The position numbers and the translations under genes are program-made. 64,000 nucleotides of DNA from Haliotis cracherodii (taxonomy: Eukaryota): NCBI RefSeq assembly GCF_022045235.1, contig NW_027266269.1, forward strand, positions 35,774,001 through 35,838,000. Reading direction: 5' to 3'. This document shows, piece by piece, positions 8,511-32,900 of this stretch (its first letter is position 1; the number at the start of each line of letters is the position of its first letter). The notes under the pieces were generated by a model. That model was not told the DNA's origin and did not search any database. It saw only the letters and a list, made by a program, of their open reading frames with translations.

Positions 8511-11244
8511 ATTATTAGTTTTAGGGTGTCACAAATAATGTAAATACAGTGGGAATTGCTTCAAGGAATTGTTGTATGAGTCGCAATAACTAGGAAAAGG
8601 AAATTGACCAAATAATTAGTTCCGCAGAGGATAAACTGATTCTTGCTTCTCAGGAGATAGAAAGAGAAATCGATCCAACAGCTACTAAACGTTTGGCATA
8701 CCTTTCCCAGATACTGAATATGAGTGAGTGAGTGAGTGAGTGAGTGAGTGAGTAAGTATGGTTTTACGCCGCTTTTAGCAATATTCCAGCAATATCACGG
8801 CGAGGGACACCAGAAATGGGCTTCACACATTGTACCCGTGTCGGGAATCGAACCCGGGTCTTCAGCGTGACGAGCAAACGCTTTAACCACTAGGCTACCC
8901 GACCGCCCCTTACTGAATATGAAATCTTGACAAACAAACACAGAAAAGAAAAGCTAGGAGGCGATGAGGATGCTGGATTCATAGGAAGGAGAAAGGGTTT
9001 GGTTTGAATCTGAGTTAGACAGCAAACTATTAAGGTTTTCTGATGGAGATTTGAATAGAAAGCTCAGCAAATACAACGGCAACCTAATTCATCTCCATTC
9101 TAATCCCGTTGCAGTGACTCGTGTGCCAAACTGGTGGGGTTGTTAACCATACCACCGATTTTGCTTTTAGGGGTTAGATAAACATTTTAAACGTGAATAA
9201 TGAAATCCTTGGCCCAGGCTGACATAGGCATGCGTAGAGTACGAGCTGACATCATAGCAGGAGGAGGATGCATTGTGGGAGAGTGATGTTGCTCGTGTGA
9301 TGACACCTGGGAGAAATTGCTTGAAATAGTGATGTTTGTAATTCGATATACTTTTGCTTACGAGGTGGGAAAGTACTTCGGGTTCTTAAAAAAGGAGAAT
9401 TTTCAACTTTAATTTTGCAATTAGTATACATAAAAGGTATTTGAACAACACATTCAGGCAGGTTGGAACATAAAAGGTTGCCTGTAAGGTAATTAACGGT
9501 AATTTCTATGGTTGTCGTCATCGTATCCCAGTTGGTTATAATAAAACATTGATCAGACGAATGAGCTAATATTATGCTGCACAGTTACTCTTTTTCCGTT
9601 GGTATACTTTGTTTGCTTGTTTATTTATTGTTTAACGCCCAGCTCGGCAATATTCCAGCTACATGTATATGGTGGCGATCTGTAAATAATCGAGTCTGGA
9701 CCAGACAATCAAGTGACTGACATCATGACCATCGACCCACGCAATTGGGATACGATGACATGCATCAACCAAGCCAGCCAGCCTGACCACCCGATCCCGT
9801 TAGTCGCCTCTTACGACAAGCATAGTCGCCTTGTTCGACAAGCATGGGTTGCTGAAGACCAATTCTATCCCGGATCTTCTTATTATCTGATGGTATGCAT
9901 TTAACACATTCTACAACGTTAATCTATTTGTATAATAGCCCGGTAACACACATTTGATGTCCATAGATTATCGTTTACCATGTTACATATCTGTCCTTGG
10001 TTGTGAGACCCGTGAAGATCTGGTATAGAATGGGTCTTCAGCAACCCATGCTTGCCGTAAAAGGTCACTATGCTTGTCGTAAGAGGCGACTAACAGGATC
10101 GGGTGGTCAGGCTCGATGACATGGTTGATGCCCAATTGCATGGATCGATTCTCATGATGTCAGTCACTGGATTGTCTGGTCCAGACTCGATTATTTACAG
10201 ACAGCCGTCATATAGCTGGAATATTGCTGAGTGCGGCGTTCAGCAAGAAACAAACAAACAAACCATTGGTTGTGACTCCTTGCACTGCAGCAACAGTCTC
10301 AGTTACGACTTCTGTCACCAAAATGATGTTCAATTCGATTCCCTGTTTTGACTCGTGTTTGTTTAGGTGAACACAGGGGCGGTCGGGTAGCCTAGTGGTT
10401 AAAGCGTTCGCTCGTCACACCGAAGACCCGGGTTCGAATCCCGACATGGGTGCAATGTGTGAAGCCCATTTCTGGTGCCCCCCGCCGTGATATTGCTGGA
10501 ATATTGCTAAAAGCGGCGTAAAACCAAACTCACTCACTCACTCACTCACTCAGGTCAACACTTGACCTGACTTTGCATGTGTTTGTGACGATATTACCGA
10601 TGGGGCAGGATACGCTCACCTGGCATTACAGTACATTCCTCAATGGAATTGTAGCCTTATCTAACAGCTCATTTGGAAAACTTAACGTTCCTGCACACGT
10701 TTGTCTGTGGTAATATTCTTTATGTGTGACGCAACGACAGAAGATTGCTATTGGGATACGATGACATACAATCAACCAAGTCACAAATCCCAACCACCCA
10801 ATCCATTTTGGACCAGCATAGCTTGCTGCATGTGTGTAAATAAGATAGTTATGCGATAAATCCAACAGAACAATGTAGGACGAGGTGTAGTTTATTTTAC
10901 AATAGAACCTTATTCTATCATGACGTCATTTCTGGAGATTCGATCATACGCTCGGAACTTGATGACGTCGTAAATTGAATGATGCTATTTTTGAGGGGGT
11001 AGTGAGTTGTCCTCCTTAATGTACCTAGGCAACGCAGATATACGCGTTGCGCCCATTTGGCACATTTTCTCTTTATAGTGTTAAATGTAACCCACCTGTT
11101 CATAAAAAAGGTCTTGTCCGACATTGCCGCGATCGGATTGTATTGAAGGAGACATCATTTATTTAAACATGAATATTTTTAAAACTTGTAAATCTTATGA
11201 ACATCCTTAAAGAGTATGTACATAATGTTGATATCTCATATGAC

Positions 11245-17500: not shown

Positions 17501-19959
17501 TATCTCTACTACTTCTTCAACTCCTTCTTCAACCCCCTGCCCTGGTCCACCTGTGGCAACCCCTGGAACACGCCCAGCTGCGTGGAGTCGACGCTGTATG
17601 GGCACCAAGGGATGAACACCACAGTGAATGGCACGGTTCCACTGCAAGCTGCCATTAACACGACACGGTCGGGTCACCTGAATGGATCCACTGATGGCGT
17701 CAGTGTTGCGAGTGCCACTGAAGAATTCTGGAGGCAGGTTAACACAATAGTTAAGCCTTGGTGACATCCCGCACTGCACCAAACGCACTCTCTGATTTTA
17801 CAAACAATTTGCATATCTTTCGGCAAAAATACTCAACCAGTTATTTTTGAACTGGTTTTATGCAATATCGACTTAACCTTTAAGAAAACAAAACTGTTTC
17901 TAAGATACTATGATAGATTGCGTGGGTAAGGAAGAAATCAATTTTGGTCACATAGCAAATCTGGTTTATATATTATATTTTGCTATGTTTGGTTAAAAAT
18001 GATCCACTTATTCGCCTAGGTTGCTAATGTTGTATTCCAACTCTGAATCCCTACTGGCCTGTAACAACTGCAGTTAGCTGTTTTCCCCTGATCAAATACG
18101 TTTTGTTAATAATTATTGAACATATCTGTTACAGGTTTAATGCACTGAACATGTTGATATTGAACATATCTGTTACAGGTTTAATGCACTGGACATGTTG
18201 ATATTGAACATATCCGTTACAGGTTTAAGGCTCTGGACATGTTGATATTGAACATATCTTTTACAGATTTAATGCACTGAACATGTCGATATTGAACATA
18301 TCTGTTACAGATTTAATGCACTGGACATGTCGATATTGAACATATCTGTTACAGATTTAATGCACTGGACATGTCGATATTGAACATATCTGTTACAGAT
18401 TTAATGCACTGGACATGTCGATATTGAACATATCTGTTACAGATTTAATGCACTGGAAATCTCGAATGGTCTCGACGATGCAGGTTCCATACGGTGGCCA
18501 CTGTTTGGATGTCTGGCCTTGACCTATGTAGCCATGTATTTCATGCTGCTCAGAGGAATTCGAGTGACGGGGAAGGTACTTTTAAACAATTGATCGGAAA
18601 TACACCGTATTCATTTTCCATTTATTCTTAACCTTCATTGGCGTTTTTAAGGAAGTATATTTTTTCAATAAATAATTTACGTTAATTTGAATTCAGTTTA
18701 TTTGTTAATTGATCACTTTCCTTGAAATGGTTTGTCAGAAAACTAATGTTTCCAGGATTATGCTAATGACACCTGATGTAGTAAAAGGCTTTTCGCATGA
18801 TGAGTTAGAAAGTTGGGACATATCGAATCTAATAGTGATCAAGGGAACTACATGCAGAAATGTAGAAAGGAAAATTATGAAAGTCATTTGCCAAAACATA
18901 TGGCGATTGGTCATTTCAACATGCTGGCCCATTGCTATGCAACAATCTGCCACAAAATATCAGAGACACAGAAAATCTGACAATTTCAAAAAGACACTCG
19001 ACATATGTCTCTTCAAGAGAGCCTGTGACAAGATCAGTCATGGTCCAAAGGCATTTTAGCAGTATTTAATTGGAAAATGCGATATACAAATTCTTAATTG
19101 AATTTGATTAAAAAAAGCTATATTTCACTTTCAGATTGTGTACGTGACATTTATGTTACCCCTTATCCTGTGTACCGTCATACTCATCCGTGGGTCCCTG
19201 TTGCCAGGGGCACTAGACGGACTTCTGTACATGATCAAGCCGGACTTTGGAAAGCTGAAAAGCCCCACAGTAGGTTTAGAACTTTATTTTCAACAACGAT
19301 GTAATAAGTTACTAGTTTCAACTTTTTTTATATATGTGAGACGTTTTCAGTGTTCTTTGTTGTTGTTAGTGTTTTGTTTATCCACAAACTTAGCAATATT
19401 ACAGATATATCAGGACGTATGCATTGTGCTTCATCTTCTCCACAGATGTGGATCGAGGCCTGTGGTTACGCTCTTCATTCCATGGGGACCAGTAAGGGGA
19501 TTGCGAATACAGTGTCCAGTCACAACCAGCCGAACAGCAACTGCTACAGGTGAGTATTTAAATAGACCTGTGTGATTTTTGTTATATTTGACCAGCACTC
19601 GCAAGTAGTTGTCGACATCAGTGGAGAACCGCCTCAGGATTATGGAACTGCCTCAGGATTATGGAACCAAGATGGCGGCACATCCGTTTCCGGTCACGTT
19701 ACCTGCGCAGTGCATGATGGGTACCTGCGCGTGCCTCCAAGATAGCGTCACTTCCGTTTCCGGTGGCATGCGCCTCCAAGATGGCGGCGCTTCCGTTTCC
19801 GGTGGCGTGCGTATCCAAGAGGGCGGCACTTCAGTTTCCGGTGGCACACGCCTCCAAGAGGGGGTTGCCTCCGTTTCCGGGAGAAGGAGGGGGAAACCCG
19901 GAGAAGCGCCCGTAAAAGGTGAACGGGATCGACATTGAAAGAAGCGCGTCAAAAATCGT

Positions 19960-20001
<42 letters not shown>

Positions 20002-23000
20002 TAAACATAGACGGGGTGGCGGTGGTTAAGGGAGGGAGGGAGGGTGGTGGTGGTGGTGGTGGTGGTGAAGGGAGGGAGGGAGGGAGGGAGGGAGGGAGGG
20101 AGGGAGGAAAGGAGGAGGAGACGGGTTCATGGTTTGGTTTGGAGAGTTGTCAAAGCAAAGGAGGAAAGTTGTCTTTCAGGAGAGATGGGTGGCCCTGAAA
20201 AGGGCCGTTGGAAAACAAACTGGAAACAAGCTGGACAAGGGTTGTCTCCTTGATTACATTACTTTCCTTGATCTCGATACTAGATAATAATACGGACCAC
20301 CCCAACAGTCGGGTATGTCAATTCTGCGTTGAATAGTTTGTTGTAATGCTGACATAGCCTCAGACTTGTTCTTAAACCAGTGTGGGCTCTGCGATAGGAT
20401 CGTCTCCGATTCACCCCGTGGGTAACCCACTATTGTCCACGAATAGACTTTCATCCTCCGCTGGCATTGTTGACTGTTGGTCTGGCACGTCAGACAGTTG
20501 CATCGAGACGACATGGTTGATCTCTCCTTCAGTGCTCGACTGTGACGGTGTGCGTGGCTTCGCTCTTTTTATAGGAGAGGCACTGACACCCTGCTTCCTG
20601 ATTGGTCGAAAACGCATCGTGCTGATGGGTTCTTTCCGACAGTTGGTCTGAGCCCCTGGTTTTCTAAATCGGACCGACCGTTGTGTTTCTTTTTTTCATA
20701 AGAAATTGTATGGGTCATGGGAGAGATAGGAAGAAAAAAATAACAGATAAAAGAGAAAGGTCATGCTTGAAAGGATCAGTTGCCTGGTGTCAGTCAGCCA
20801 GAACACAGGATGGCATCACATGATGATGAAGAGGTCATGACCAGCCCTTTGACCCTACGGCATCCTTTTACGATGTTCATTGCGGGACCCACGGGATCAG
20901 GAAAAAGTTCCTTTGTGAAATCATGTATGGAGCAGATGCATCACCCCGAGGTGTTGGATACATCACCCCATCGCATCGTGTGGGTGTACAGCGAATGGCA
21001 ACCGCTTCATCATGAACTGGAAGAGATTGCAGACCACTTAGGGGTCGCTCTTGAGTTTGTCCACAGCATGAAACAAGCGGATCGTGCCTTGCCCGAAAAA
21101 GGGGTGGCCCCACGTTGGCTGGTCATCGATGATTTGCTGGGGGACAATACAAAAGAAGAAGAAACCGAAGTACTGCGATGGTTCACCAAGAAAAGTCATC
21201 ACCGAAACACATCTGTGCTATATCTCACTCAGAACTTGTTTGCTCAATCGCCGCAACATCGCACCATCAATCTGAATGCTCACTACATGGTCCTCTTTAA
21301 AAATCCGAGAGATGCATCGCAGATCGACAGTCTGGCTCGCCAGGTGTTTCCAGGCAAAGTTCCTTTTCTGCGTGAAGCCTATGAAGACGCTACCCGAGAG
21401 CCTTACACTTACCTGTTCTTGGACTTGAAGCCCACCACGTTGCAAGACCATCGCGTACGCGCCCGCCTGTTTTCGAGATCCGAATTACCCCTCGTGTATG
21501 TGCTGATCCTATGAGATGAAGAGACTTTCATAAAAGGAGGTGAACCCTCAGACCTTCCTTCAGTTGACCTACTTCCATCATGGGGCAGAGACGGAAACAG
21601 GTTCATCCTACAAAGGGAAAGAACAAAGACAAAGAGATGGTGAATGATGTCTATGACAGTATGGTCTCCCCCTCATCGCTACAGGGACTTGTGACCTCTG
21701 TATTTCACAAATATGTGCGGCAGCAGGACACCCCACAAAGGAAGAAAAAAGACAAGAGACAGTCTATTTTTCCGACAAGGGATGCGACAACCCTTGCCGT
21801 CAAAGGAAGAAATCGTCTTTTGCAGTGGTTTGCGATTGTCGTGCGGAACCTGAGAGCAGGACACATCCCATTGAAAGCTCAACATAAGACGTGGTTGCAG
21901 AGACATAATGATACCCTGACTAAAATTGTCAATCCACGTCTGCCTATGGATGAACGTCTTGACTACCTGATGCAACGCAGTGGTAGTGGAACACTTGCAG
22001 GGGTCTTGACACGCATTCTGTTGCAATGGCAAAATTATCTTCAAGCACCACTCCTCAAACAGGGTAACACCAGACGCCACCGACCTACAACAAAAACAAC
22101 GATGACTACTAAGCCAAAAGTAAAGGCTCATGAAAATGTCATGAAAGCATATCAAGCTGATGCTCTCAGACGATTGGTGCACATGCGGACCCAAAGAAAG
22201 TCCAAGAAGTCAGATCAACAGTTGCAACTCCCTCCTGCCACTGCCTGATAAAAGAGAGAAGCTGCAGATAGGTGACTCATTCAGGCTAACACCTCCATGC
22301 AAGAAAGATGTCTCAGTGCCTCAGGAAACAGAAACACGCTCTGTGTCATTTGTGTGCTGCCGCTCCAGCGATGCGCAAAGCCATTCTCAAACATGCTCCT
22401 ACTGATCTCATCCGTGCCCTTTGTGAATGTGTGGTGAACTTGTATGCAGGCAATATTCCCATGACCACGACGCAACGTCAAAACTTGCAACGACACGGTA
22501 AAGTCTTGAATACGCTCATGAAAAAACAAGTACCTCTAAGCAAGAAACGTAAACTTCTTCAACATGGAGGAGGATTATTAGGAGGACTCATACCTCTTAT
22601 TGGTTCTGCCCTAGCCTCTTTGTTTGGAGGAAAGTAATAAATGGTCTGACACCAGGAAGGTTGGGATCAGTGTGTGGTGTGCCACCATGAAGTACGCACG
22701 CAAGATGGTGTTGGTGTCTGAAGACACATGGCAAAGTCTACAAGCCACCAAACAACGTCATCGTCAGACACTTCATACCCCTCTCTTGGAAAAGAAACGT
22801 CTCCAAAATTTGGAAGAGATGGACGCGTTGATGCAGAGGTCACAGCAGCCTTTTCACATGCGGGAACAAGAATACAACCAACTGTTGCAACACATGCTAG
22901 AGTTGCAGCGCCAACAGCACAACAACAACCACAACCACAACAGCAACACCATCAAACCACTACAACCCAAAGTGACACCACCACTACCACCGTCATCACC

Positions 23001-26000
23001 ATCAACAATGGACACCACAGGTAGACCTGCCCCTCCTCAACAAGTGATAGACGAAGTGGTCATGAGTGTTCCTAAAGCCATGTCCAGTAAAGCCATGAAT
23101 TTGATGACAAGGATTCAAAACAATCCCGACTTGAGTTGGGCTCCAGAGGGAACCCTGACCGTGGAAGGGAAACCTGTCCCTGGCACACACATGGTGGACT
23201 TGATCAACGATTTAGTGCGTCACCGGAAAACCAAAGAGGGACCTGCAGGTTGGACCATTTTGAGTCACCATTTGGCCAACAGTCATGTCCCTCATGAAAT
23301 AATTGGAAATCCTCAACGATGGCAATGGATGCAGAAGCAGCAGCAGCAGCAACACCATCCTCATGCCACACCAGAAACACCCATAACCCAGTTCTCCCTC
23401 CCCACGTTCTCCCCGCAAAGTCACAAAGAGAGAAGAAGAAGAAGAAGGAGGCGGCAGCTGGATCCACAAGCGGAAGAAGAAGAAGAAGAAGAAGAAGAAG
23501 AAGAAGAAGAAGAAGAAGATGAGATGCCACCCCCACCTCCTTCGTGGCAAGTGGATCCAACAGTGGAGGAAGAAAAAGATGTGATGTCAATCCCATGGTT
23601 GATGACTCCACCTCCATCTGATACCAAACAGGACAGAGTCATCAACAGGCGAGGTTCATGGATACCCTTTAGCACCACCTAAGAAAAAAAAAAAAATCTC
23701 TCCCCTTCTCTATAAAAAGGCCATTCATGTAGGAAGTGGCATCAGTCTGAGAGAAATGAAGCGACAGACCAAGACGCGACAGAGCATTCTTCCCTCTGCT
23801 GCTGCTGCAGGGAAACAAAACAAAGGATTTCCTACTTCCCTTTGGACGGCCTGGTTGGAAAAAACCTACTTTCATCCTGAACATCCTGCAAGTTTTGGAG
23901 GCTGGCGACCTTTGTGGAAAGCAGCACGCATCCACGCTCAAGATGCAAGAACCAGTAAAAGCAAGAAGAAAACCAAGCCATCGCAAAGTCAAATCAAGCG
24001 TTGGTTGCAAACCAAAAGTACCTACACCTTGCACAAACCAGCCAGACGCTCCTTTCCCAGAGACCACTATCGTGTGGGAGGGGTCGATGAACTGTGGCAA
24101 GCAGACTTGAGTGACATGATTGCCTTTCAAGACGACAACGAAGGATTCAAATATCTGCTGTGCGTGATCGATGTGTTTTCAAAGATGGCATGGGTGCAAC
24201 CCCTGAAGGCCAAGAGCAGTTCTGCTTTGACAGAGGGTTTTCAAACCTTGCTGATGCAACAAGCCAAAGATCGACTCCCTCCTCAATTGCAAACAGACAA
24301 AGGCAGAGAATTTGTCAACCGTCCTTTCCAGGCTCTCATGACGAAACATGGCATTCATTTCTACACCAGTCAAAATCCTGAAACGAAAGCAGCCGTGGTG
24401 GAACGGTTTCAAAGGACTCTGAAAAATAAAATGTGGCGATACTTTACACAGCATGGGACCAGACACTATTTGAAAGTCTTACCCCAGTTGATCAAGTCGT
24501 ACAACCGTCGTGTGCATCGGACCATTGGCCAGCGACCTGTGGACGTCCTCCCAGGAGATCCCCTGTCAGAAATTTGGGTGTTAGACTACATGGAGGAAAA
24601 ACAACAACAACGGCTTCAGCGCAAAAAGAAAATAACAGCTCAAAGACTGTCGTCCCCCAAGACAAGATCCCCCTCTCTTTTACTGCCGGGCACCCGTGTA
24701 CGTCTGAACAAAACCAAAGGCACCTTTGAGAAAGGTTATCTCCCCAATTGGACCACCGAACTGTTTACGGTGGACCGGTTGGTGACAGGGAGAATACCAC
24801 CTGTGTATCGGATCAAAGATGATCATGGTGAAGTCCTCCAAGGAACTTTTTACCCTGAAGAATTACAACCCATCTTGAAAACAGACGATGTGTATGCCGT
24901 GGATCGCATGCTAAAAAGACGTCCAGGACCAAAACAGGGTCAAGAAGAGGTCTTGGTGAAATGGACTGGTTACCCTGCCAGTTTTAATTCGTGGATCCCT
25001 GCAGATCATTTACAGATAAAATAAGGAGCATGCTGTCTCTCAGACTCATTCAGAGGGTGGACACACGCGATGACAGAACCGCCACCACCACCACCACCGT
25101 CATCACCTCTGCAGAGAAGCCTCTCAGCATCCGTGGGTACCGATGAACCACCCCTTGCTGCTGCACCTCGTCATCAACAGCGCCGACACTCACCTTGGTG
25201 TTGTTTGGGCATGACGTTACCCCGTAGTGAAGTCGTGTTTTTTGCTCAGATCATTGTGATATATGGCGTGATCATCATGAGCATGGTACAGTTGGCCTTG
25301 GATCACGGAGAGAAACAGTTGTGGACAGCCCTGCTTTCCAGTTGTTTGGGATACATACTTGCACCACCCACCTTGGCCGCCTCACCAGGCATACCCACGA
25401 CGACCCCGTCCACCAGAAGACTTCAACTTGATACCTCATCCACCCAGAGTTTTCTACCCTAACTCACGTCATCATGGCTGTCACCTTTTTTTCGAAACAA
25501 GACTTTTACATGACCCTGCCCAGTGATGCCTCCATGGACATCTATCCAAACAACACCGTCAATGCGTATGAAATAAAGTTGCCTTATCCTCTGCATCTGG
25601 ACCGTCAACAGTGGGAGGTGGGCGTCAGCGAAGTTCACTTTCCGATGACATGGTACAACGTCGCCCCACCCTTTGACTGGTTTGCGCTGAACCTCAAACT
25701 GAAAAAAGACACCCTTGTGTATGAAAGCGCGGGGAGCGCTATACCACAGCCACAGTATGGTGTCGTCCATTATGAAAGCAAGAAGATTCCTATCGAGAAA
25801 GGCGTCTATTCATCTGAAGATTTGGTGAAAACCCTCAACCGTTTGATTCAGGAACATATTACGGATGTCTTGAAAGAACAGCCCTCAGACAGCGTCCAAA
25901 GTGATGGAAGACGGTTTGTCATTGATGTCAAGTATCCCGCAGATAGTCTTCGATTTGACATGCTTGAAGATGGAAAGGTGTGATTGCAAGCCCCTCAAGA

Positions 26001-29000
26001 AGTAGCAATCAATCATCCTCTCATGGGAAATACTCGTGGACCACTCTATTCCACGGAAGTGATCATGCCAAGTCCACTCTCGAGAATGCTCGGATTTGTT
26101 CAACTACCGCTCCTCGGTGAGGAGGACTATAAAACCTACACAGAGACGGCCGTTCCCTTGACTGCCTCGGCCCATTGGCAAGTGGGGGCTACTCCCATCC
26201 CGGTGGCTATGTGGAAATCACAGGTGACACAAAAGCACATCGTCTGTCAGGATTTGATACTGTGTACATTTACACCAACCTGGTCGAAGATCAAATTGTG
26301 GGCAATACGATGGCTCCCTTGCTGATCTACGTGCCTGTGTCAAAGAAGATGATGCAAGAGAGTGTGGTGATTAAAAGCCCTCAGCACATTCACTACCTTG
26401 GGTTGCGTCATGGTTCCTTTGACGGTATTAAACTCTATATCATGGACGACACAGGGCGACCCGTGACATTTCAAATGGGGAAAGCCATCGTGACACTTCA
26501 CTTCAGACGCCGCTACTAACGCAGAAAACAACATGTTGGGACACGCAATGGCACACCAGATGAATCGAGGACAGTTTGGCCAGCGTGGGAGTGGTATCAA
26601 AGTATACAAAGGACGTTATCATCAACGTGGCAGTGGTCTTGGAGGTATCTTGAAGATGGCGTTGCCTTTCCTTAAATCTGCCGGAACATCGGTGCTCAAG
26701 ATGGGTAAAAAGATCCTGCCTGGGTTGGTGAGTGATGTGGTTGGAGGCAAACGCAAATGGTCAGAGAGTTTGAAACATCGCGGCACAGCAGCCCTGATGG
26801 ATGTCTTGGAGGAACGTGAGGAGCCGAGACCCCCTAAAAGCCGTAAAGTCGTCCCAACCACCACCACCACCACCACCACCCACCACCAGCGTAAAAGAAA
26901 AAGAAAAACGGTTTAAAGGTCAGTCCTCATCAGACTTTCAACCTGACCAGACGTCCTTCAAGGCAGAGAAAAGGGTGAAACATCCATCATCATGATGCGC
27001 CGAGATGCTTGCGAATGTTCAAAGGCCCAGTTGGATCTCTTTACTATACCCCCTGTGTCCACCTCTGTGCAAGAGGGTCAGTGGATTCGCTATTGTCCCT
27101 TTGCACCACCCTCTGTAGCAGGACCACTCCAGTTTAACATTTCCAATCCTGTGAACGCTTACATTGATTTGAAACAGTGCTACCTGAGAGTATGTCTACG
27201 AGTGACGAAAGATGATGGCACGGATACCGTTCTAGCGGATAACCCCGTATCGACAGTCAACAATGTGATGCATTCCCTGTTTCGCGAAGTGCGGCTGCAA
27301 GTAGGACACAATCAGTTGGAGATCACACCCTCCATGGGCACTTACCCTTACAGAGCCTACTTGGAAACCCTTCTGAGTTATGGTACAGGAGCCAAAACAT
27401 CTCACCTTCTATGTCCTTGATGGTTCACCGACGATGCTGGTAAAATGGACGTCTTCAATCCTGATGCAGATGCGAACACAAGAAACACAGGTGTCAGAAC
27501 GCGACGCGATCTTATCGTACCCACCAAAGAAGTGGAACTTACAGGCCGTCTACACTGTGACCTGTTTCTTCAAGACCGTTATCTGCTGGATGGTGTCCCT
27601 ATGAAACTGGAATTGCTACGAAGTCCCGATGAGTTCTTCTTCATGTGTGCTGCTGATGGTGCCTACAAACTAGCGCTGACCAAAGCCGAATTCTATGTCC
27701 GTCAGCTCAACATCGATCCTGCTGTCCGAGAAACACATGTGTCCAGTCTGAATGCTGGGGTGACTGCCAAGTATCCCCTTTCACGTGTGCATGTGACTGC
27801 CCATGACATCCCGAGAGGCGGTAGGGACTTTCACAAGGATCACCTCATCGGTGGCCAATTACCAAAACGCGTGGTCCTGGGACTGGTGAACAATAGTGCC
27901 TACGTAGGAATCAAAGAGAAGAATCCGTACAACTTCAAACACAATCATGTCACCATGATGAAGCTCAAAGTCAACGGCCAGGAAGTCCATGGCACGGAAA
28001 TGAAAAGCGACTTCAGCAACAACAGCGCCAATTTGAAACAAGTCTACATGAATCTGTTCCGAAATACGGGGCAGCTATGGCGACCTGAGACCTGCGAACT
28101 GACTCCCAAGGCCTTTACTCAAGGTTACACCTTGTGGGTGGTGGATCTCACCCCAGACCTTGGCGCTGATGAAAGCATCAACTACCCTCGACACACTGGC
28201 AAGCTGGCTTTGGAAATCCAGTTTGGCCAAGCTCTCGAGGACCCAGCCACCCTCATCTGCTATGAGGAATACGAAAATGTTCTGGAAATAGATCGTTTCC
28301 GGAATGCGATGATGGTATAAAAAGAGCAGCGACAGACGGTCATGCCACACTTTTTCTCCTCCTACAAGGAACCATGGATGAACCACTCGGGTTGAGCACC
28401 TTGGATTTAGAAGCCCTCGTGGCTGATGACGAACCACTTCATGCCATCTACCGGGGCACCCTGGCCAGAGATGACTTTGCCAGACTGGGATGGCAACAGG
28501 ATGACCCCTTTTACCCCAAAGCCTACGTGATCAACACGGATTTAAGCGATCAACCTGGCACACACTGGGTGAGCATCTATCGTCCAGCTCCTGGATCCGT
28601 GGAAATGATGGATAGCTATGGACTGTATTCATTACCCCTGTTTAAAGAGACTTTGAATCGCATGGGTCAGATTCAACAACGATGGAATACACGCCCCTAA
28701 CAACATGGATACAGCACGTTGTGTGGGGTGTACTGTCTCTACATGCTGACCTATCCCGTGCGTGGGTGGACTTTTAATCAAGTGTTAGATACGTTGGACT
28801 GGAAGGACACCAGCAAGAATGATGCCACGGTATTAGCATGGTTTCATACCAAAGTGTCTACCTCCGTTCCTGTGGATGAGATGCCTGCCTTTCGACTGAG
28901 TGCCCAGACGCGTACCCTACATCAAAAGAATCAACCTTTCTGCCCTTATTGAACTGACACTTGTTCACTGAACCTACGATCACCTGACTGTCAACATTCC

Positions 29001-29907
29001 TGATTGAGGAGTGTACATACGTTCACTGCGTTTTAGGAATGTACATACGTTCACTATCAAAGTGGCAAAAGTTCTTTTTTTTCAAACTGTACATACGTTC
29101 ACATACGTTCACATACGTGTACATACGTTCATGTTCACAAAAGTCACAGGGACGCCCCTAATCCTGTGACTTTTGTTTTGTTGTGTTGGTTCATATGAGC
29201 GGGGGATTAAAAAAAGTTGAACCCATAGTCGTGTTGTGTGGTCTGTAGGATGAAGAAAAACAAAACAGGATCGCCATCTCACCCAAAAGACAACTATCCT
29301 CCTTTGCTTTGACGACCCTCCAACCCACACCATGAACCCGTCTCCTCCCTCCCTCCCTCCCTCCCTCCCTTCACCACCACCACCCTCCCTCCCTCCCTTC
29401 ACCACCGCCACCCCGTCTATGTGTAGAACAACAACAACAACAACTACAAACGATTTTTGACGCGCTTCTTTCAATGTCGATCACGTTCACCTTTTACGGG
29501 CGCTTCTCCGGGTTTCCCCCTCCTTCTCTCGGAAACGGAGGCAACGCCCTCTTGGAGGCGTGCGCCACCGGAAACGGAAGTGCCGCCCTCTTGGATGCGC
29601 ACGCCACCGGAAACGGAAGCACCGCCATCTTGGAGGCGCACGCCACCGGAAACGGAAGTGACGCTATCTTGGAGGCACGCGCAGGTACCCATCATGCACT
29701 GCGCAGGTCACGTGACCGGAAACGGATGTGCCGCCATCTTGGTTCCATGATCCTGAGGCGGTTCCATAATCCTGAGGCGGTTCTCCACTGATGTAGACAA
29801 CTACTCTCGCAATATGTATATAAATATGTATATCGACGGTTTATCTGTACCAGTCTGCACCCCTACCCACACCTACCCCCCACCCCCACCCACAGACAAA
29901 GACACCC

Positions 29908-29959
<52 letters not shown>

Positions 29960-32900
29960 GGTCCTATTCTTAACCGGAGTCGACACGTGGTTGAGTTGGG
30001 GTGAGGGGTGTGTATTGGCAAAGCGGGGTAAAACAACAAAGAAACACATTCCATTATAGTGTTAGTTTATTTATGTATTCATATATTTATATATAATATT
30101 TTTAAAATGTCTTTATTTGATATTTTAAGCTGTTGACTACATATCCAGGTGAGCTACAGTGCCGTTACTACCGTGGGAAAAGAAGCAGTATGACAAAAGA
30201 GCAGATTCATGTCACAGTATACCGACATCTTTTTACCAGAGTGGCTCTGATCGCTTGCATCGTGGACCCACTGATCACCATCTTCTGTGGACTGTCTATC
30301 TTCACGGTGTTGGGGCACATGGCTTACGTGACCGGGGTCGACATGGACGACTTCCAGTCATCAGGTTTGTTTCTGTTAATTATGTAGCATTTTGTTTTTT
30401 TGTTTTTTTGTTTATCGCCGCACTCTGTAATATTCCATCCATGTGACGTCGGTCGGTAAATAATGAAATCTGGACAAGACAATCCAGTGATTGATATTGA
30501 TGAACATCGATCAGTGCAATTCGATTACGATGACATGCATGAATCATGTCAGCGAGTCTGACCACCCGATTCCGTTATTCGCCTCTTACAACAAGCATAG
30601 TCACCTTTAACGGCAAGCTGGGTTGCTGAAGACCTATTCTATCCCCGGAATGTTCACGCGTCTCTACGCATAAGGCATTACGGACACATGGAAACATTTT
30701 TTCAAATTAAGTAAAAGGTATTCTGTACGCATCACGGACTACGGTTGTTGAAGATCAATACTAACCCAGATGTTCACGAGACAGCACTTAAACCTGTTTA
30801 CATTGTGTGTTGAATTTCAGTGTAGGAGGATTGTAATATGATAATACAACCAACTCATTCTCTCTCAACTCGTTTTTAGGTCTTAATCTGGCATTCTCAG
30901 TGTTACCGGAAGCAGTGACTTATCTCCCTTTGCCCCAGTTGTGGTCGGTGCTGGTCTTTGTGATGATGATGACGTTGGGCCTTGATACAACGGTAAAAAG
31001 AACTATTATAGAATATATTGTCTTGGCCCTGATCCATACGGATATACCTTGATACAGAAATATATAAATATAAGATCGTTTTCAAGAAAACAGATTACAA
31101 ACAAAACAATTCAATTTACTGAGTGAGTGAGTTAAAATGTAACGTCACATCGGGAATATTTCGGCCATTTTGTGACGAGGCAAAGTTATACAGTAATAAC
31201 ATATAGAGTTAGATTTACTAAATCCTGTCATCGAAGGACAGTAAAAATAACTAGATTATCGAAGATGTTATTTGGAACTAGTTTGAGACCATGTAAAAGT
31301 ATAAGATATCATTTAACAGCACAATACAGAAATGGGCTATAGATCGCCAGTAACCAAACTGCGCAACCATACTCTGGACGGTGGGACTTCTGCTTCCTGC
31401 ACCGTGCCTTAGCATGATTTATACCATCACTCCAGCTGTTGGCGATTGCACGCAATGTTAGTCATCAATCTAAAATGCGACTTAAAACGGTGGTAAACAT
31501 AAATATTCTTTGAATGACTTGGGCTTAGGAGAAATGAATCTAAAATGGAAGTAAATGATTAATGATAAATTATTTATCTGCTGGCAGGGAACAGGGAACA
31601 GGGAACAATCTATATAGCTATATATTTGTTGCGTATTTACAGTTATGAAATGGTCAATTGTCGAGGTTCTTGTTGTTTCACAGATGCCGAGTTTGGAGAT
31701 ACTGTCGGAGACACTTTCTGACCAGTTCCCTAAGCTGACCAGACACCGGTGGCTGCTTCTTCTTCTCGTCTTTATTCCCTCTTTCCTTCTGACTCTCCCG
31801 TACACTACACAGGTATTCCTTTTCACTAGTCCCTTATAATAAGGCTATGATCATGCGCATAATGTGTATGAGCTATTTTTAGCTCAACCCATTAAGGGAG
31901 ATCACCCACATGACTTGATATCTTCAGCAGCAAACTTGTAAAGCCAATTTGATCATACTTACAGCGATGATTTCGATACTTATGAAATTTATTGCCACAA
32001 TGGTTCGGATAATCTATGCATTTTTAAAGTTCTTTAAGAAGTCGGTCTTTTTCATAAACCGTGAATATTGTTTACATAACATGCGACTAGCGTAGTTGAC
32101 ATTTCTTTAAAAAATATGTTATATATTTATCTATCCAATGTGTTTATATTCCTATTTACCTTACTGTTGTCGCTTTGTGGCTGATAAAACGGAGCATCAA
32201 ATTTGGACTCGCTCGCCCACTTATAAACCAGTCCCTGTTAAATACATATGTGTATGAATGGTGTATACTCTCATCACCACGAATCTTGAAGGGTTACCCA
32301 CATTACATAGTATCTTGTGCAACAAAGTCGTACGGGAAACTTGTATAATCTTTTACCAACGTTGGTTTTCGTTGGTGCATTGTTACATAATAACCAATTA
32401 CGTTTAATTAATTAAATAAAAGTGACAAAACCTCTCTACAATGCTAAGAAGACGAGTCTGTTGTACAATTCCGACATATAATAAGCTATTCTTAATCCCT
32501 ATCAAATAGTGATGACACCAGGTGAGCGTATTCTGTCCAACTGGTGGCGCCCGCCGCACACGCATGCAAAGTCACTTCAAGTCTTCACACGGGAACTGCA
32601 TCGGACATTTTGGTCACAGATGCGTCAGATTTCGAAACGTTCTCCAAATGTCTGAATGAAACCTTTTAAAAGCTTTACCAAGGCTTTGACTTGTAACCCC
32701 GATCAAACGTTTGTAACTGAATCTCTTATTCAGCTGAAATATATCTTGCATGTACACATGCATACCTTTATCTTCATCGTTCTCCATTGGTATCGTGTAT
32801 ACGTTCTCCTCGCAGGGTGGTATCTACCTCTTGACCCTCGTAGACTGGTACTCTGCTGTCCCTCCCGTGATGTTGTTTGGGGTGGTGGAGTGTCTGGTAC

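Follow-up and report, generated by a model that had tools for sequence, protein, structure and literature searches.

The 64,000-nucleotide stretch of Haliotis cracherodii DNA analysed here (the window) holds an element that has the ends and gene order of a Maverick and no pPolB, although polintons, in the definition given in PMC5499653, encode both pPolB and an integrase. The question raised by this locus, and put as two options in the preliminary description, is whether a Maverick lost its polymerase gene after inserting at this site, or whether the element belongs to a mobile lineage whose protein-primed replication is supplied by another element with the same ends.

The element in the window

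The element is 10,202 bp long (positions 19604-29805), starts with AGTAGT and ends with ACTACT, carries TIRs of 585 and 532 bp that are 96.3% alike over their first 300 nt, and is flanked on both sides by CTCGCA, a perfect 6-bp TSD. These boundaries are as first described, as are ten + strand genes, whose order is that of Mavericks and whose downstream part has the same order in a complete 16.5-kb relative in the same genome. The host gene was recognised as SLC6 from a PF00209 match on an upstream exon and from exon translations. The features are as follows.

19552-30236, + strand: intron of an SLC6 (sodium:neurotransmitter symporter) gene in which the element sits, its 3' boundary placed approximately
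19598-19603: left 6-bp target-site duplication, CTCGCA
19604-20188, + strand: left TIR with AGTAGT terminus, of a TIR family common to the polymerase segment and gene-less palindromes
20189-20729, + strand: non-coding region
20729-20734: junction common to the whole family, at which pPolB and two small genes were lost; its two sides adjoin in all 16 B copies
20810-21514, + strand: A32-like packaging ATPase, open, 234 aa (PF04665, E 2.6e-6, over cut-off)
21580-22248, + strand: ORF2, basic protein, 222 aa (320 aa in sisters), no Pfam match
22308-22637, + strand: ORF3, 109 aa, conserved Maverick accessory gene, presumably PW-like, with a homologue in the complete relative at C4:10.28M
22687-23682, + strand: ORF4, 331 aa, putatively PZ-like, with a homologue in the same relative
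23756-25024, + strand: retroviral-type integrase with chromodomain, open, 422 aa (PF00665, E 1.5e-11; PF00385, E 1.2e-7)
25070-25462, + strand: ORF6, 130 aa, hydrophobic stretches seen in the sequence
25474-26519, + strand: likely penton (minor capsid), broken, 348 aa in sisters (position and weak Atlas lead)
26533-26916, + strand: ORF8, 127 aa, basic, G/S-rich, probably a core protein
26992-28320, + strand: double-jelly-roll major capsid protein, broken, 442 aa in sisters (sister protein model)
28374-28952, + strand: putative adenain-like maturation protease, broken, 192 aa in sisters (weak PF00770 match, sister copy)
29274-29805, - strand: right TIR
29806-29811: right target-site duplication, CTCGCA

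The reported lack of pPolB also held: when three natural pPolBs of the same genome were compared by phmmer with all 378 six-frame pieces of the element the best E-value was 1.1, and tblastn found no pPolB remnant in it. Among the ORFs scanned, no Pfam match to a substitute replication gene, whether an SF1 or SF3 helicase or a primase, came over the cut-off. The integrase has its DDE motifs at about D117, D181 and E216, and the predicted model of a sister capsid (pLDDT 91.4) has as its top PDB match the Sputnik capsid 3j26 (E 3.2e-17, TM 0.69). The Atlas lead for the penton, Sputnik V18/19 (0.97), is weak, with recognition under the bar, and Atlas returned nothing usable for ORF4; the PF00770 match of the protease, made on a sister copy, has an E-value of 0.037, below the cut-off.

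The description of a complete virion and integration kit does not fit this copy. Its penton gene has a premature stop (25981-25983) plus a frameshift, the major capsid and protease genes have stops at 27418-27420 and 28698-28700, and an in-frame deletion leaves ORF2 98 codons shorter than in the sisters. A conserved intron or programmed frameshift behind the split capsid, penton and protease frames was considered and rejected because the sister copies carry single open frames; among 10 listed copies, 4 are open in all ten frames. The copy in the window is an older and decayed insertion of a capsid/integrase segment, hereafter B, whose copies are 10.2-10.6 kb long and encode the ATPase, integrase, major capsid protein, likely penton and putative protease, with no pPolB.

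A shared junction and a polymerase segment

Comparison of internal junctions across the genome revealed independent insertions that share the PolB-less layout: one junction (window 20729|20734) is present in 16 of the 16 sister copies checked, with 8 different TSDs, and it also lies within a contig from a public run. Deletion of pPolB from an ordinary Maverick after insertion at the window site, for which the other post-insertion damage in this copy might speak, is refuted by this recurrence and retains next to no probability. In one B fragment without its left part (C23:51.5M) the junction is unreadable.

The same genome holds dozens of elements with the TIRs of the window element and 6-bp TSDs of their own, mostly 11-12 kb long (segment A). 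They carry a gene for a pPolB of about 1,420 aa (PF03175), in which the full set of exonuclease and polymerase motifs is present, together with two BIR genes and an ORF of zinc-knuckle type. The 13 A copies read end to end all have TIRs of the shared family, each with a different perfect 6-bp TSD, and integrase, capsid, ATPase and protease are absent from every one of them. In one pair of an A and a B copy the first 310 nt are identical, and A and B each insert independently with 6-bp TSDs. The left side of the B junction matches segment A at 2409-2541, before pPolB, and the right side at 9003-9064, after pPolB and two small genes. Window positions 20471-20729 are 70-72% like a repeated element of A that occurs, in one of its copies, directly upstream of pPolB; this element may act as a promoter.

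The proposal of a mobile lineage that depends for its replication on another element with the same ends is supported, in that TIR-sharing pPolB elements were found; the likely helper is not a complete Maverick, as none of these elements has an integrase or virion genes. Since A is without the integrase and all virion genes, the dependence would be mutual (bipartite), not that of a satellite on a helper.

Among 42 TIR pairs, drawn from 100 of 105 pattern matches in one assembly, 26 were A-type, 9 B-type and 7 gene-less palindromes; the longest was 12.0 kb and none held both modules, so that no autonomous helper with matching termini is present in this set. The palindromes also carry 6-bp TSDs; as a third coding segment they were rejected, being tandem-repeat palindromes with no recognisable genes (ORFs outside the Pfam scan). 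Own-genome searches score best candidates only, and in these the 11 capsid matches at >=96% all fell in B-type loci, with pPolB in 0 of 10 of the 10-kb regions upstream of further capsid loci. Searches for free or metagenomic relatives gave 0 matches of the TIR pattern in metagenome contigs and 0 confirmed integrases in viral contigs.

Decayed unsplit copies and selection after the probable split

Three decayed loci keep pPolB upstream of B genes (C3:34.09M, C4:41.79M and C23:52.51M), and at further loci pPolB and/or BIR adjoins a B-type ATPase (half-way copies). Modern A retains short pieces matching both flanks of the ATPase of B, and each segment bears deletion scars of the genes of the other. 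In the pPolB tree the unsplit fossils branch below modern A, and in the integrase tree, in which a long unrelated branch was retained, they fall outside the clade of all 10 B copies (96/97); the ATPase tree gave no resolution. Along the trees, pPolB change since the oldest fossil is about four times integrase change, and polymerase swaps or A-B recombinants may therefore account for some of the fossils.

In the B genes, variants shared between copies give an ω of 0.24 and private variants one of 0.57 (71/87 vs 592/306, Fisher p 7.7e-7), with 0 shared and 40 private stops; for the capsid alone the values are 0.19 and 0.44. The B genes are under purifying selection after the split. The same test on pPolB was not significant (ω 0.28 vs 0.44, p 0.10).

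These values bear on a reading of A and B as a two-component intracellular transposon, in which A would copy, B would insert, particles would no longer be made or needed, and other complete Maverick families might also serve either segment. Such families do share the genome, including one of 21.4 kb with open pPolB, integrase and capsid frames, the virion genes of the window copy are broken, and no particles have been seen. However, capsid, penton and protease (shared-variant ω 0.19, 0.21 and 0.28) all have fewer shared than private amino-acid changes, and the TIRs of the other complete families are without detectable likeness to those of A and B, while A and B ends are near-identical; we regard this reading as quite improbable.

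Hardly more probable is a reading of A and B as two kinds of defective genome, both sustained by a complete and still active helper that shares their TIRs and that, missing from this assembly, would be carried by other individuals or circulate as a virus. Unsplit copies did exist, the ease with which defective DNA is copied and inserted is evident from the gene-less palindromes, Pieris polintons without polB are described beside complete relatives (10.1101/2025.02.07.637071), and an intact unsplit copy could exist, either as a rarity beyond the best candidates scored in this single assembly or in other animals. Set against this are the absence of both modules from any of the 42 TIR pairs, the old and broken state of every unsplit copy found, and the fixation of both deletions, in A and in B, across copies of different ages; moreover, a parasite would not need ten genes kept under purifying selection.

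A probable genome in two segments

We therefore consider it highly probable that B, the capsid/integrase segment, and A, a separate polymerase segment with the same TIRs, originated when a single genome split in two, and that they complement each other in trans. Together they make up the full Maverick/Polinton gene set, of which B alone is not a canonical member, and essential genes are divided between segments with shared termini, as in a multipartite genome. On balance, and with distinctly less assurance, we favour a bipartite double-jelly-roll dsDNA polintovirus whose segments are packaged and integrated separately, which drove its monopartite parent to extinction in the host lineage, which supports snap-back defective genomes and whose segmentation intermediates are preserved as fossils in one animal genome. 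Separate particles and trans complementation would be consistent with the TSDs on integrase-less elements, the selection on the capsid genes and the similar segment sizes.

In the proposed mechanism, the pPolB of A would copy any linear DNA with AGTAGT ends by protein-primed strand displacement, and the integrase of B would insert any DNA with such ends, which could explain the TSDs on integrase-less A and on the gene-less palindromes. The capsid of B would package one segment, up to about 12 kb, per particle. With many germ-line copies of both segments, every cell would hold A and B, the split genome would thus carry no co-infection cost, and the shorter halves could then outcompete the whole form.

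Like Mavericks/Polintons (polintoviruses, adintoviruses), B has AGTAGT ends, TIRs, a 6-bp TSD, an rve integrase, an A32 ATPase, a double-jelly-roll capsid and a probable protease; here pPolB resides on A, so that the gene set is divided over two independently inserting elements and neither fits the polinton definition of pPolB and integrase in one element. Bidnaviruses, Vesanto virus and the segmented densovirus have parvovirus-type capsids and are not known to encode an integrase, and the yeast linear plasmids pGKL1 and pGKL2 each carry their own pPolB and are likewise not known to encode an integrase. In the sources cited, the segments of bidnaviruses and of Drosophila Vesanto virus match at their termini, replication genes sit on other segments than capsid genes, and both have pPolB (PMC8502044, PMC8363768), and the Acheta domesticus segmented densovirus likewise keeps replication and capsid genes apart on segments with matching termini (PMC10267136); these are described as ssDNA viruses, whereas A and B have a dsDNA-type genome and a double-jelly-roll capsid, and both integrate. 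The killer/helper plasmids pGKL1/pGKL2 are, like A and B, two linear dsDNA elements of which one assists the other, but are described as cytosolic and without particles (PMC13348850). Tlr elements and polinton-like viruses are described with integrase, ATPase and capsids and without pPolB, Tlr having a superfamily 1 helicase instead (PMC4028283); in segment B no replication gene was detected.

The polB-less polintons of Pieris mannii and other insects, as described, are TIR-flanked like B and were amplified after polB loss (10.1101/2025.02.07.637071). That account describes retroelement cargo and more complete relatives that still bear polB, whereas here the polB carrier itself has neither integrase nor capsid, and the only whole copies found are decayed. 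Polintons without a polymerase gene, next to complete relatives, are on record; no case of a reciprocal split into two segments was found in the literature searched (most subscription journals, Repbase Reports and supplements lay outside its scope).

In the tables of a 2017 review the multipartite viruses include no dsDNA family, and polydnaviruses are the sole segmented dsDNA entry (PMC5680193); theory, in the account cited, predicts that a complete parent can be replaced by two complementary defective genomes (PMC10223652). Natural records of the steps of segmentation are scarce, and here a single genome contains the whole form, half-way forms and both finished segments, which trees allow to be placed in order. 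How polintons without polB move is a published question, to which the A/B system gives an answer that can be put to the test. In surveys that look for pPolB and integrase within the same element, A and B would both count as debris, and similar cases may therefore be hidden in other genomes.

The pPolB-less segment and its sister copies

The window element had been described as a polymerase-less Maverick bounded by TIRs with AGTAGT termini and a 6-bp TSD and containing ten + strand genes, and all of these features are found. The element is intronic, lying inside an SLC6 transporter gene.

Features of the window
19604-29805, + strand genes: copy of segment B (the capsid/integrase segment), 10,202 bp, no N; AGTAGT start, ACTACT end, CTCGCA flanks on both sides
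19604-20188: left TIR
29274-29805: right TIR, 96.3% like the left over the first 300 nt
46029-47500: extended tandem array of G-rich sequence (10/15-bp units; strong GC skew)

The genes follow Maverick order, with the ATPase (PF04665) and integrase-chromodomain (PF00665, PF00385) above Pfam cut-offs, while position and weak matches tentatively suggest a penton and a protease. The capsid model of an unbroken sister copy (pLDDT 91.4, alignment of 108 rows) matches the capsids of Sputnik, iridovirus and PBCV-1. The claimed absence of pPolB was borne out, a search of 378 six-frame pieces of the element giving no remnant (best E 1.1). The complete kit that had been proposed does not hold for this copy, in which premature stops interrupt penton, capsid and protease and ORF2 lacks 98 codons; all ten frames are open in four of the ten B copies listed.

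Searching the 1.18-Gb host assembly, in which the window is C6:35774001-35838000, with the integrase gave 14 loci at least 93% identical over most of the query. The B copies read end to end measure 9.9-10.6 kb (one is 8.3 kb) and have eight different TSDs (CTCGCA, GACATG, CACGGC, CACTTA, CATATG, GTCTCC, AGCTCC and ACTGGT, with an additional terminal triplet in the ACTGGT copy), the independent insertions of one pPolB-less layout that the preliminary description had proposed to look for. Its other option, a post-insertion deletion, fails: window 20560-20900 aligned as a single piece in 16/16 B copies tested (89-100% identity), including the window copy and its two duplicates, and this uninterrupted stretch, with eight TSDs, rules out a one-off loss of pPolB here. 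A contig of sequencing run X13 (organism label C; it may not be the host's) also covers 20198-20905. The duplicates, flanked by CTCGCA at C6:35839984-35849927 and C6:40.82-40.83M on the window's own contig, arose when the host twice duplicated the SLC6 region with this insertion, and different genes are broken in each. The closest named proteins come from Haliotis, so the host is probably an abalone: the B capsid is 99% identical in H. cracherodii, 89% in H. rufescens (partial) and 74% in H. asinina; in the last, no pPolB exceeds 50% identity to that of segment A over the region searched (clusters P0003, P0128). Clustered repeated pPolB or integrase pieces, resembling tandem arrays of partial copies, lie at C6:29.62-29.64M, C45:62.28-62.37M and C34:55.2-55.34M.

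A polymerase-bearing partner with the same termini

A PF03175 search of the assembly returned many pPolB loci. A pPolB-positive element with matching TIRs, the likely helper that had been sought, is present at C78:61.505-61.517M (a copy of segment A; 11,575 bp, TSD TCTGAT, TIRs 86-88% like the window's), but it is not a complete Maverick: its products are a pPolB of 1,418 aa, two BIR proteins and that of a zinc-knuckle ORF, with no integrase, ATPase, capsid or protease. The pPolB, 92% identical to an H. rufescens protein, retains three exonuclease and three polymerase motifs. The 13 A copies that were read from end to end all carry these TIRs, each with a different perfect 6-bp TSD, and measure 10.6-11.9 kb, apart from one of 8.1 kb and one of 16.2 kb; nested inside the latter is an unrelated 4.9-kb element that has TIRs and a TSD of its own. 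The presence of 6-bp TSDs on elements lacking integrase points to insertion in trans. The first 310 nt are identical between one A copy and one B copy, terminal 33-mers are common to different element classes, and an A-type copy at C23:51.5M also has the inner TIR variant of the window copy.

Segment A also has a promoter-like element of ~200 bp that is repeated four times; its BIR genes are of the inhibitor-of-apoptosis type, and its zinc-knuckle ORF lies partly within an inverted repeat (up to 1.56 kb). Directly after AGTAGT, at TIR positions 7-30, the A, B and gene-less copies have a short variable segment. It comes in ~20 variants; the two ends of a copy almost always mirror each other here, and a variant is sometimes found in more than one class, which points to homogenisation or exchange of ends during replication. 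The element nested in an A copy at C1:41919256-41924196 (4,941 bp, 903-bp TIRs from TGATGA, 6-bp TSD TGTCTT) has an integrase resembling that of Mavericks (34%) and an ATPase-like gene (32%), with no pPolB or capsid seen; similar integrase frames of 393-396 aa occur at several other loci, and it represents a mini-Maverick-like family.

The shared TIR pattern matched the assembly 105 times (control, 0), and 100 of these matches gave 42 TIR pairs, the longest 12.0 kb: 26 with pPolB, 9 with integrase, 7 with neither and none with both, counts that are lower bounds because the searches score only the best candidates. A outnumbers B ~3:1 among the pairs. The shortest pPolB-integrase distance was 165 kb (60 pPolB loci at ~>=89%, 36 integrase loci at ~>=79%), a comparison that left out older matches, including three unsplit fossils. 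All 11 capsid matches of at least 96% fall at B-type loci, and pPolB lay within 10 kb upstream of 0/10 further capsid loci. Other Maverick families include complete elements (21.4 kb; 16.5 kb), whose TIRs are unrelated to those of A and B. Apart from A and B, at least three Maverick families combine pPolB, integrase and capsid-block genes (C4:10.273-10.290M, C23:74.45-74.47M, C4:1.41-1.43M), and open pPolB frames occur in many copies of the 21.4-kb family.

The seven gene-less pairs (5.5-9.9 kb) are largely palindromic and made of tandem repeats; six include part of the non-coding region on B's left side, and all seven have 6-bp TSDs, six of them distinct. They are likely snap-back defective genomes, and they show that DNA with TIRs but lacking its own genes is still copied and inserted.

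Fossils, trees and selection

Three decayed loci (C3:34.09M, C4:41.79M and C23:52.51M) carry pPolB upstream of B-type genes on the same strand, the first holding pPolB, ATPase, integrase, penton, capsid and protease. Half-way copies also occur: C1:21.70M has pPolB, A's two small genes, a B-type ATPase and BIR, with no capsid block, and C5:40.03M and C67:42.93M are similar but rearranged. In modern A, pieces at A 9004-9064 and A 9235-9307 match the DNA directly before and directly after B's ATPase, respectively, and a further piece matches DNA after B's protease. At the B junction, the element that precedes pPolB (up to window 20729) is joined to the pre-ATPase piece (from 20734).

In trees rooted by two related complete-type elements, with groupings read from the trees as drawn, fossils of the unsplit and the half-way kind branch off one after another below modern A for pPolB, and the three unsplit fossils fall outside the clade of all 10 B copies for integrase (96/97). 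End branches are 0.055-0.09 in fossils and 0.04-0.047 in the oldest B copies. Change along the trunk is ~0.17 per site for pPolB versus ~0.04 for integrase, which implicates recombination or a faster rate and counts against a simple history; some fossils could be recombinants.

We compared variants shared by at least two copies with private ones in 14 independent B copies and 12 A copies. In B, 71 non-synonymous and 87 synonymous variants were shared (ω 0.24) and 592 and 306 were private (ω 0.57; Fisher p 7.7e-7), the contrast outweighing the absolute ω because the site count ignores transition bias and the copies are related. None of the shared variants and 40 of the private ones were stops. 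Shared ω was 0.15 for integrase, 0.19 for capsid, 0.21 for penton, 0.28 for protease and 0.65 for ORF2. For pPolB in the A copies the difference (0.28 shared versus 0.44 private) was not significant (p 0.10).

A Maverick probably divided into two segments

The nearest published case is the amplified polB-less polintons of Pieris mannii, where more complete relatives remain beside them and mobilisation is left open by the authors (10.1101/2025.02.07.637071). Tlr is described with a helicase in place of pPolB (PMC4028283), and bidnaviruses and Vesanto virus as having matching segment ends, like A and B, but ssDNA (PMC8502044, PMC8363768). The tables of a 2017 review list no multipartite dsDNA family (PMC5680193), no split element appears in the keyword-matched passages of 10.1101/2023.08.22.554363, 10.64898/2026.10.13.758929, 10.1101/2022.07.12.499685, PMC8097293, PMC13215967 or PMC11131425, and no reciprocal Maverick split was found in the literature outside subscription journals, Repbase Reports and supplements.

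By analogy with Maverick and adenovirus biology, A's pPolB would copy the linear DNA of both segments, starting at their AGTAGT ends, B's integrase would insert either, and packaging, one segment at a time, would fall to the capsid, ATPase and protease of B. As A and B are both in the germ line, every cell holds both, so that little would be lost by splitting and the shorter molecules would prevail, an advantage modelled in RNA viruses (PMC10223652).

The window element is a genuine Maverick segment that is mobile but has no polymerase, and the partner that complements it lacks integrase and capsid; the two have complementary gene sets, shared ends, independent insertions and unsplit fossils, with selection on B. 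Neither B (no pPolB) nor A (no integrase) alone satisfies the definition of a Maverick, whereas together they do. The pair, known here from the genome sequence, is likely a single Maverick divided into two mutually dependent segments, which may be packaged and integrated separately.
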